DNA of 64,000 bases. It comes from a virus. This document shows positions 12,918 through 13,764 of this stretch, one piece after another; the first letter of the stretch is position 1; every line of letters starts with the position of its first letter. The notes under the pieces were generated by a model, which was not told the DNA's origin, ran no database searches, and saw only the letters and a list, made by a program, of their open reading frames with translations. The DNA lies in IMG/VR virus record IMGVR_UViG_3300026257_000002, positions 1-64,000 of that record; one strand, 5' to 3'. Both the position numbers and the translations under genes were made by a program.

Positions 12918-12942
12918 TTATTTAGTAAGAGGTTATGGACAA

Positions 12943-13014
12943 CTCCCAAGGCAGGATTTGAACCTGCGACCGAGTGATTAACAGTCACCTGCTCTGCCAC
13001 TGAGCTACTTGGGA
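12943..13014 (-). tRNA. trnN: tRNA-Asn (GTT)
   Basis: Cloverleaf: TCCCAAG/CTTGGGA acceptor stem, GGTGA-CTGTTAA-TCACT anticodon arm, GCAGG-TTCAAAT-CCTGC T arm; no encoded CCA. Confidence 0.96.
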
Positions 13015-13282
13015 ATAAAGGGGGGCTTCTCACCCCCCCTGAACTACTTGGGTAACAAGGCTAGTTTAACCCCGATCTCCCATTCAGGCAGTCACGAGTT
13101 CGCGAGTGCGGGAGAATGCTACGATGTTATTCGCAGCAGGTGTAGATGTTTTAGCATCTGTTGTTTGCTTATCCAAGCAGGTTTCAGTCACAATCGTAAT
13201 AACCCGTCTAAACCGTGGCACCCCCATGAATGGAGGTGAGGAGAGTCGAACTCCTGTCCGAGCCTATTCGTAAAGTCACCTA
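13015..13282 (-). ncRNA. ssrA: Circularly permuted (two-piece) tmRNA, marine cyanobacterial type; outer boundaries approximate
   Basis: Acceptor piece GGAC-AGGAG-TTCGACT-CTCCT-CACCTCC-A (ends 13231); 5-nt spacer TTCAT; coding piece starts GGGGGTG-CC-ACGGTTTAGACGGG (13225); G3.U70 pair; tag ORF 13134..13084 = ANNIVAFSRTRELVTA*; TCTCCC/GGGAGA helix; terminal GGGGGG/CCCCCC hairpin. Confidence 0.9.
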
Positions 13283-13300
13283 TTCCTCTTTGAAGAGGAA

Positions 13301-13372
13301 TGCCATCAGGAGGATTTGAACCACCGACCTTGGCTTTACAAAAGCCCTGCACTACCACTGTGCTATGATGGC
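13301..13372 (-). tRNA. trnT: tRNA-Thr (TGT)
   Basis: GCCATCA/TGATGGC acceptor stem; anticodon loop TTTGTAA; T loop TTCAAAT (T stem has one T.T mismatch); no CCA. Confidence 0.93.
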
Positions 13373-13374
13373 GA

Positions 13375-13448
13375 CGATTCAGGTTGGACTCGAACCAACG
13401 ACCGACTGCTTAGAAGGCAGTTGCTCTACTCCACTGAGCTACTGAACC
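13375..13448 (-). tRNA. trnR: tRNA-Arg (TCT)
   Basis: GGTTCAG/CTGAATC acceptor stem; CTGC-CTTCTAA-GCAG anticodon arm; TTCGAGT T loop; no CCA. Confidence 0.96.
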
Positions 13449-13452
13449 AAAG

Positions 13453-13534
13453 TGGGCAAGGTTGGATTTGAACCAACGTAGGCAGAGCCAAGGGATTTAC
13501 AGTCCCTCTCCTTTAACCACTCGGACACTTACCC
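13453..13534 (-). tRNA. trnY: tRNA-Tyr (GTA)
   Basis: GGGTAAG/CTTGCCC acceptor stem; AGGGA-CTGTAAA-TCCCT anticodon arm; long variable arm; no CCA. Confidence 0.96.
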
Positions 13535-13551: not shown

Positions 13552-13764
13552 TCATGTGTAGTATGCTTGAAAGTATTTAACAATACCATCAGAACGAACA
13601 TTACCCTGAGACACCCAATCATGGCAACACTGAGTGATGCTGTTCATACTATACATTGGTTCTTTATTTTTGTCAAGCACAGATCCAAAACGAGTGAGGA
13701 GAAGACTGTAAACTTTTTGCCTCAACTCCATACGGTCATCGCTATAACGCCAATCATCAATCAT
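13552..13764 (-). CDS. Hypothetical protein (70 aa)
   Basis: ORF track; contains the promoter of the RNA operon. Confidence 0.6.
   Translation of the reverse strand: MIDDWRYSDDRMELRQKVYSLLLTRFGSVLDKNKEPMYSMNSITQCCHDWVSQGNVRSDGIVKYFQAYYT
13648..13676 (-). promoter_or_regulatory. sigma70-type promoter, probably driving the tRNA/tmRNA operon
   Basis: TTGACA-17 nt-TATAGT, ~110 nt upstream of tRNA-Tyr. Confidence 0.7.

Follow-up and report, generated by a model that had tools for sequence, protein, structure and literature searches.

A permuted tmRNA gene with a remodelled tag end in a T4-like cyanophage and its relatives

The sequence analyzed here (the window) is a stretch of 64,000 nucleotides covering positions 1 to 64,000 of the IMG/VR virus record IMGVR_UViG_3300026257_000002. 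The source record is 132.5 kb long, has a completeness estimate of 71% and derives from a T4-like cyanomyovirus, whose nearest GenBank relatives are Syn1 and S-RIM44 (approximately 77% identity over conserved genes). On the minus strand of the window, ARAGORN called a permuted tmRNA ('tmRNA*') at 12993-13322, and the same region matches the Rfam family cyano_tmRNA (RF01851) at 13021-13309 over the entire model (positions 1-288 out of 288; 132 bits against a gathering threshold of 70, E 1e-35). This match is far beyond chance. The general model tmRNA_permuted (RF04321) is also above threshold (68.9 bits and 47, respectively). The gene lies within an unbroken cluster of tRNA genes, all on the minus strand, and its acceptor piece begins directly after the end of tRNA-Thr at 13301 (Table 1).

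The permuted order is confirmed by the arrangement of the parts: the acceptor 3' part comes first, with the acceptor 5' part and the coding part downstream of it and beyond TTCAT, a segment that is likely removed on maturation. CCA is not encoded in the acceptor piece. A G3.U70 pair, together with A73, is the identity signal for alanine, and among the parsed phage copies with correctly paired acceptor arms G3.U70 is always kept while the arms themselves covary. The fold of the coding piece has a z-score of -3.8 and reproduces the annotated helices. From this anatomy, the gene is predicted to encode a putative two-piece RNA that may be processed, aminoacylated and used in trans-translation with SmpB.

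Table 1. Features of the tmRNA locus in the window
Feature	Position	Strand	Basis
Whole permuted (two-piece) tmRNA gene	13021..13309	-	Rfam RF01851; ARAGORN 12993-13322
Acceptor piece: 5' hairpin, one strand of the long helix, T arm, acceptor 3' strand, discriminator A	13231..13300	-	Sequence reading and Rfam
T arm AGGAG-TTCGACT-CTCCT	13239-13255	-	Sequence reading
Acceptor 3' strand CACCTCC	13232-13238	-	Sequence reading
Discriminator A (A73)	13231	-	Sequence reading
Intervening segment TTCAT, 5 nt	13226..13230	-	Sequence reading
Acceptor 5' strand GGGGGTG, start of the coding piece; 7-bp pairing with CACCTCC gives G3.U70	13219..13225	-	Direct reading
D-loop analogue GGTTTAGAC, A at 13209	13206..13214	-	Sequence reading
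Hairpin AGAUG-CUAAAA-CAUCU; the probable resume codon begins with the last base (G) of the 5' arm	13144..13159	-	Minimum-energy fold and covariation
Probable full tag frame, GCT (resume) to TGA, AKTSTPAANNIVAFSRTRELVTA	13084..13155	-	ARAGORN; host-homologous upstream context; 21-nt tandem duplication
Tag as initially annotated, ANNIVAFSRTRELVTA-stop, from second copy of tag start to stop	13084..13134	-	Reverse-complement reading
Last two codons ACT GCC (Thr-Ala); GCN GCC (Ala-Ala) in hosts	13087..13092	-	Sequence and host comparison
Helix UCUCCC (13110-13115) / GGGAGA (13076-13081), enclosing hairpin UCGCG-AACU-CGUGA and the stop codon	13076..13115	-	Fold; same helix in Rfam consensus structure
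3'-terminal G+C-rich hairpin of the coding piece, then UUUAU	13020..13039	-	Rfam and fold
tRNA cluster with the tmRNA: Tyr 13452-13534, Arg 13373-13449, Thr 13301-13372, tmRNA, Asn 12942-13015	12942..13534	-	ARAGORN; Rfam tRNA matches
Sigma-70-like promoter (candidate) TTGACA-17-TATAGT, 11/12, about 105 nt upstream of tRNA-Tyr	13648..13676	-	Consensus match only

The sigma-70-like site upstream of the cluster is a candidate promoter of a joint tRNA/tmRNA transcript. The site (13648-13676, minus strand) falls within a 70-aa ORF on the same strand (13552-13764); this ORF is perhaps not a genuine gene, or else the promoter may be embedded in it.

The initial annotation of this locus had read a tag from the reverse complement of 13084-13134, and the reading is correct: GCG AAT AAC ATC GTA GCA TTC TCC CGC ACT CGC GAA CTC GTG ACT GCC TGA encodes ANNIVAFSRTRELVTA followed by a stop. 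It had also taken the first of these codons, at ANNIV, as the one on which translation resumes, which is probably seven codons too far downstream. ARAGORN starts the tag at the GCT at 13153-13155, seven codons upstream, and thereby adds AKTSTPA before ANNIV. The phage context before this upstream GCN, composed of the hairpin followed by AAACCnnnAnnT, aligns with the host pre-resume context at the same spacing of 10-11 nt. The A at position -4 to the upstream start is invariant in the 58 unique phage sequences; the bases at -4 and -5 are important for frame choice in E. coli. The seven-codon extension is uninterrupted and constant in length in all 58 of them, and between the phages S-CAM1 and S-CAM3 it differs only synonymously. 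At five loci the extension reads GCT AAT AAC ATC GAC ACC GCT before GCG AAC AAC ATC GT, that is, ANNIDTA followed by ANNIV. The 21-nt insert therefore reads as a tandem duplication of the tag start that added seven codons, with ANNIV as its second copy. Given the homologous host context, the invariant A at -4, the uninterrupted frame and this duplication, the resume codon is probably the GCT at 13153-13155, and the predicted tag is approximately 23 residues long (AKTSTPAANNIVAFSRTRELVTA).

With the resume codon at this position, the hairpin at 13144-13159 probably contains it, rather than lying upstream of it as had been proposed. The hairpin itself is real. It is present in essentially all phage copies, and its stem covaries among unique sequences (AGATG/CATCT in 28, ATCTG/CAGAT in 5 and the shifted register GATG/CATC in 8). 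The unusual D-loop analogue GGTTTAGAC, which had been singled out at the same time, is real as well: it occurs in 16 of 85 phage copies and in none of 96 hosts. The remaining phage copies carry GGTTTCGAC (60), GGCTTCGAC (5) and GGTTTTGAC (4), and the hosts carry GGTTTCGAC (92) or GGCTTCGAC (4). With a variable base that is C in 60, A in 16 and T in 4 of the 85 phage copies, GGTTTAGAC represents one of the minor polymorphic forms of the phage family. These counts, and those of the intervening segment given below, refer to the phage copies that could be parsed, leaving out 29 that could not.

Besides the Synechococcus phages Sf-FS3, S-CAM1, S-CAM3, S-SSM7 and S-SSM6a, the single-cell virus AG-345-P14 and an unrelated myovirus, S-CBWM1, carry similar genes, each with 109-143 bits to RF01851. 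The GenBank records of these cyanophages carry no tmRNA annotation, and small 'hypothetical protein' CDSs overlie several of the genes, which are thus un-annotated or mis-annotated. Two such CDSs lie inside the tmRNA genes of S-CAM3 (T040910_205; L002:1455-1595) and S-SSM7 (SSSM7_025; L004:1482-1700).

To extend the comparison, we enlarged the phage set by two scans of IMG/VR and scripted ARAGORN runs, to a total of at least 114 phage loci with at least 38 distinct tags. The census required the tag start ANNIVxFS(R), and this pattern gave the working set of loci. A pattern based on the T arm was rejected as too generic, since most of its matches were unrelated tmRNAs and many were probably att-site or host-like sequences. 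Tags of the pelagiphage type (...NIVDYTNVA) were seen among its IMG/VR matches. At the IMG/VR loci L019, L039, L080, L086 and L088, permuted tmRNAs encode tags like DNVNNIVDYTNVA and GNVNNIVDYTCVA, which end in -VA and are possibly of this pelagiphage type. Among the 114 phage loci listed, the tag ends in TA in 56 and in AA in 38, while the other 20 end in AV (5), TV (4), LV (4), LA (3), VA (2), PA (1) and CA (1). The altered end is therefore not a peculiarity of the window but a recurrent feature across the cyanophage tmRNA family.

As a host baseline, we scanned one genome per prokaryote species with a pattern that fixed only ANNIVxFSR and left the tag end free, and obtained a list of 112 cyanobacterial tmRNAs. 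Of these, 108 end in AA, three in VA and one in IA, and 85 end in ...Q(A/T)APVAA. Thr-Ala was found in none of the 112 host tmRNAs listed, which favours the initial observation that the phage tag departs from the host-type ...APVAA. In Synechococcus WH7803, an isolation host of such phages, the tag is ANNIVRFSRQAAPVAA, ending in ...APVAA. The Ala-Ala end is typical of the host family, though it lies outside the definition of the RNA family; the window tag has Thr-Ala in its place. The lone 'host' match with a phage-type tag (...TRELATA) was L275 (NYWG01000053.1; tag ANNIVAFSRTRELATA), from the MAG 'Verrucomicrobiales bacterium CPC23', and is almost certainly a cyanophage sequence mis-binned into the MAG of a heterotroph.

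To trace the origin of the phage genes, we built a tree from the RNA without the variable half of the tag (62 distinct phage sequences and 93 host rows, approximately 270 columns; many forks are unresolved). All 62 phage sequences form a single clade (SH-aLRT 100, stem length 1.48), which is nested among the tmRNAs of marine Synechococcus and Prochlorococcus. At the base of this clade are phage copies that still have the host-like end ...QAAPVAA. Within the clade, at least seven changes between AA and non-AA ends are required, and at least eight for the penultimate residue, whereas no AA/non-AA switch is seen among the 93 host rows of the tree. S-CBWM1 and L232 were excluded from these counts. 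We did not trust the placement of S-CBWM1 inside the phage clade, as its branch length is 3.9; with no duplication and a spacer of 17 nt, independent capture is as likely as membership of the clade. The permuted tmRNA of this unrelated myovirus (L007:1458-1736) encodes the tag ANKIVAFHRQAVSCA (...VSCA), with an intervening segment of 17 nt and without the duplication of the tag start. It is probably a separate capture, again with an end other than Ala-Ala.

The intervening segment varies among the phage genes. It measures 5-9 nt in 61 of the 85 parsed phage copies, and 5-98 nt in hosts. In 23 of the 85 phage copies, a complete tRNA gene is nested between the discriminator A and the acceptor 5' strand (15 Tyr-GTA and 8 Asn-GTT), flanked by no more than 2-5 nt at each end. 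These copies include L128 (about 1269-1700), L144, L222, L234 and 19 more IMG/VR loci, and they span several tag types. No nested tRNA was found in the intervening segment of the 96 hosts. Excision of the nested tRNA would alone release both tmRNA pieces, and these copies thus show a neat route to splitting a permuted tmRNA precursor. A single such case, from a nominally archaeal MAG, has been described in the 2025 tmRNA database paper, where it is called a 'unique feature' (PMC11915505). The tRNA-Asn of the window (12942-13015), immediately 3' to the tmRNA, is nearly identical to the Asn gene nested in L234, with little beyond one compensatory pair in the T stem to separate the two. Since L234 and L150 also stand nearest to the group of the window on the tree, a tRNA, or a piece of the tmRNA, appears to have changed place between close relatives.

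We then asked whether the tag is maintained as a peptide. In this tmRNA family a short frame runs from the putative Ala resume codon to a stop, and the encoded peptide is conserved. Over AANNIVAFSR, the entropy of the phage sequences at the three codon positions is 2.49, 2.88 and 7.67, respectively, with the third position dominant. Indels that separate the phage tag variants are of whole codons only. This third-position signature, the whole-codon indels and the synonymous changes are a clear signature of selection at the protein level and argue that the tag is translated. At the tag end, the residues around -2 are likewise maintained by synonymous codons. Leu at -4 is encoded by CTC, CTT, CTA and TTG; the codon at -3 specifies Ala or Val and always starts with G; position -1 is also Ala or Val, with last Ala codons GCC, GCT and GCA; and TGA, TAA and TAG are all used as stops. 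At -2, the variation in phages is concentrated at the first base of the codon (1.41, 0.61 and 0.34 for the three bases), and the order is reversed in hosts (0.29, 0.72 and 1.37). The residue at -2 is Thr in 19 of the 40 unique phage ends, Ala in 14, Leu in 4, Val in 2 and Pro in 1, and Thr itself is kept through both ACT and ACC. The tags of L204 and L135 are identical except for ACT versus GCT near the end. No truncated, frameshifted or charged-residue end was found among the aligned phage tags. The phage tag is therefore not decaying: it keeps the motif (D/E)-L-(A/V)-x-A, in which x is free and most often Thr.

Neither the window's record nor any of five complete genomes of tmRNA-bearing cyanophages yielded a gene for SmpB (PF01668) or ClpP (PF00574). 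With no SmpB gene found there, the phage RNA would have to use the SmpB, AlaRS, EF-Tu and proteases of the host. The motifs GYVG, ITRDV and GGRKH are kept in the ClpX of WH7803, where we take the residues numbered in E. coli to have their presumed counterparts. In E. coli ClpX, residues in these motifs contact the Ala-Ala-COO- of the ssrA tag, and replacing one or the other of the two terminal Ala residues raises KM while leaving Vmax nearly unchanged (PMC7652416). Also in E. coli, Ala-Ala is found in 91% of the 100 strongest C-terminal degrons and a change of the terminal Ala to Ser raises KM approximately 8-fold, but -LVA is as good as -LAA (PMC10862746). In Synechocystis, turnover is graded by the last three residues (LVA > AAV > ASV; PMC2860132). 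By analogy with the KM effects of Ala changes on the one hand, and with the strong -LVA tags on the other, a Thr-Ala end is expected to be a weaker rather than a dead ClpX degron, and this is plausible for the phage tag.

The explanation that we favour, and that we consider fairly probable, is that the gene encodes a functional two-piece phage tmRNA, captured once, in which the tag has been remodelled so that ribosome rescue is kept while the tagged products become poorer, or rerouted, substrates of ClpXP. An ancestor of the T4-like cyanophages would have taken the gene once from a marine picocyanobacterium. The tmRNA would be transcribed together with the phage tRNAs, and host tRNA-processing enzymes would cut the precursor into the acceptor piece and the coding piece. 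Host AlaRS could then charge it with alanine through G3.U70 and A73, and during infection host SmpB and EF-Tu would deliver it to ribosomes that have stalled on broken mRNAs. Translation would resume at the GCT of the hairpin (13153-13155) and append the approximately 23 residues of AKTSTPAANNIVAFSRTRELVTA. In the phage lineage, this tag would have been remodelled twice, through the seven-codon N-terminal extension that arose by tandem duplication and through the acquisition of a different C-terminal motif, (D/E)-L-(A/V)-(T/A)-A, whose penultimate residue is free and mostly Thr. As a result, ribosomes would be rescued and the tagged products would have a higher KM for host ClpXP or would be routed differently. 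The penultimate residue is the one that ClpX reads most strictly.

Several observations weigh against this explanation. One third of the phage copies listed keep -AA, hence -TA is not required. The -LVA tag, which has a beta-branched penultimate residue, is a strong degron in both E. coli and Synechocystis, and Thr may therefore cost little (PMC10862746, PMC2860132). Moreover, across the tag helix a U is the pairing partner of the A of ACU, GCU would yield G.U at this place, and RNA stability could contribute. This last point can be turned into an explanation of its own, in which ACU is favoured over GCU for the A-U pair across the helix of the tag 3' half and Thr is a by-product. In the predicted fold, two ACU codons would lie opposite one another (A-U, C x C, U-A); in the TRELATA, ...DELVTA and ...SELATA types, a U invariably precedes the local stem on its 5' side and faces the A of ACU; and the third base of the -2 codon is nearly invariant. 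However, the partner U occupies the third base of a codon (ACU, AUU, GCU), where a synonymous change to C would allow pairing with G without altering any residue, so that Thr is not dictated by the structure. U.G is tolerated in -AA members of the same tag type (L135, L074), and CCT, CTT and GTT are also found at -2. We regard a purely structural origin of Thr as improbable.

A further possibility is relaxed constraint: a short lytic cycle would need rescue only, the penultimate Ala would drift, mostly by the GCT-to-ACT transition, and -TA would have no adaptive meaning. The variation at -2 is indeed concentrated at the first base of the codon, many ends coexist (TA, AA, AV, TV, LV, LA, VA, PA) and a single transition separates the AA and TA forms in near-identical genes. 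In several bacteria, moreover, proteolysis of tmRNA-tagged products is dispensable, while rescue is not. Drift nevertheless fits poorly with a freedom that is confined to -2, since Ala/Val at -1, Ala/Val at -3 and Leu at -4 are kept through synonymous changes, and Thr itself is retained through ACT/ACC. Nor does it fit with the lack of any truncated, frameshifted or charged end, or with the rarity of GTT (Val), the other transition neighbour of GCT, which is seen in 2 of 40 ends as opposed to 19 for Thr, where equal transition rates predict otherwise. We therefore consider drift alone unlikely. Least probable of all, in our judgment, is a decoy that is not translated and mainly titrates host SmpB or blocks host trans-translation, like the tmRNA of mycobacteriophage DS6A. 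A competitor for host SmpB had been suggested in the initial annotation; no SmpB gene was found in the phage, which needs that of the host, and the D-loop analogue bases A and T are seen in phage copies only. A DS6A-type molecule composed only of the tRNA-like domain has been reported to inhibit tmRNA (PMC4131195, PMC11915505). Such SmpB-titrating mini-tmRNAs have a tRNA-like domain without a tag frame, whereas the window tmRNA has a full coding piece. The conservation of the coding piece, the stop and the frame, the third-position signature over at least 10 codons and the whole-codon indels are not needed by a decoy, and the codon signature argues that the tag is translated. A reading of the tag end as a PDZ-type C-terminal ligand was also considered and set aside.

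The window tmRNA shares most of its architecture with the two-piece tmRNA of marine picocyanobacteria (RF01851), including the gene order, the tRNA-like domain with G3.U70 and A73, the long helix between the pieces, the helix between the FSR codons and the post-stop region, the 3' hairpin and the tag core ANNIVxFSR. The phage form differs in the 21-nt duplication of the tag start and the hairpin around the resume codon; in the intervening segment, which is 5-9 nt long or holds a tRNA; in the remodelled 3' half of the tag and its helix, with -TA or another non-AA end as opposed to -APVAA in hosts; and in being borne by a phage in which no SmpB gene was found. Mycobacteriophages and Bacillus phage G are known carriers of tmRNA genes (PMC4131195), and 79 phage sequences are listed in the 2025 tmRNA database (PMC11915505). 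A survey of 18,146 phage genomes by Buchholz et al. (2022) reported 53 two-piece tmRNAs, 50 of them marine or aquatic, and named AG-345-P14, which is one of the relatives of the window; tag ends were not compared there with those of hosts (PMC9004378). In contrast to the window, the OM43 phage Melnitz carries a tmRNA of the alphaproteobacterial type, linked to a glutamine riboswitch (PMC9004378). We found no published comparison of phage and host tmRNA tag ends in the searchable literature.

Mycobacterial tmRNA tags end in -YALAA. Mycobacterium phage Bxz1 (L359:1501-1935) has a one-piece tmRNA in its tRNA cluster, with an acidic tag of 25 residues (ATDTDATVTDAEIEAFFAEEAAALV) that ends in ...EEAAALV, and is listed among the phages with ssrA (PMC4131195). 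It resembles the window in the phage tRNA cluster, the long acidic tag and the non-Ala-Ala end, but has the standard, unpermuted form of the gene, an unrelated tag and an actinobacterial host. With Bxz1 (...AAALV) and S-CBWM1 (...VSCA), non-canonical tag ends may be general in phage tmRNAs. The engineered ssrA variants LAA, LVA, AAV and ASV, which grade turnover by ClpXP, alter the same last positions as the natural phage variants; they are laboratory constructs, and among the variants for which the accessible text gives values none has a penultimate Thr. More tentatively, we can imagine, though we hold it doubtful, that phages with a tmRNA of their own rewrite the degron systematically: the distinct selected tag of cyanophages, composed of the seven-residue extension and (D/E)-L-(A/V)-T-A, would keep rescue while it removes the products from the queue for host ClpXP or passes them on to a different protease or adaptor, and the same strategy would have arisen independently in other phages (Bxz1 -ALV, S-CBWM1 -SCA). 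If this is true, control over the fate of trans-translation products would be a previously unrecognised layer of phage takeover.

Trans-translation has two outputs, the freeing of ribosomes and the destruction of their products, and the relative importance of the two has long been debated. The cyanophage genes offer a natural set of close relatives: the RNA machinery is constant, as is most of the tag, and the residue read most strictly by ClpX toggles repeatedly between Ala, Thr, Leu, Pro and Val, while the hosts remain constant. If Thr-Ala slows degradation, phages would tune the protein quality control of their hosts during the infection of abundant marine phototrophs.
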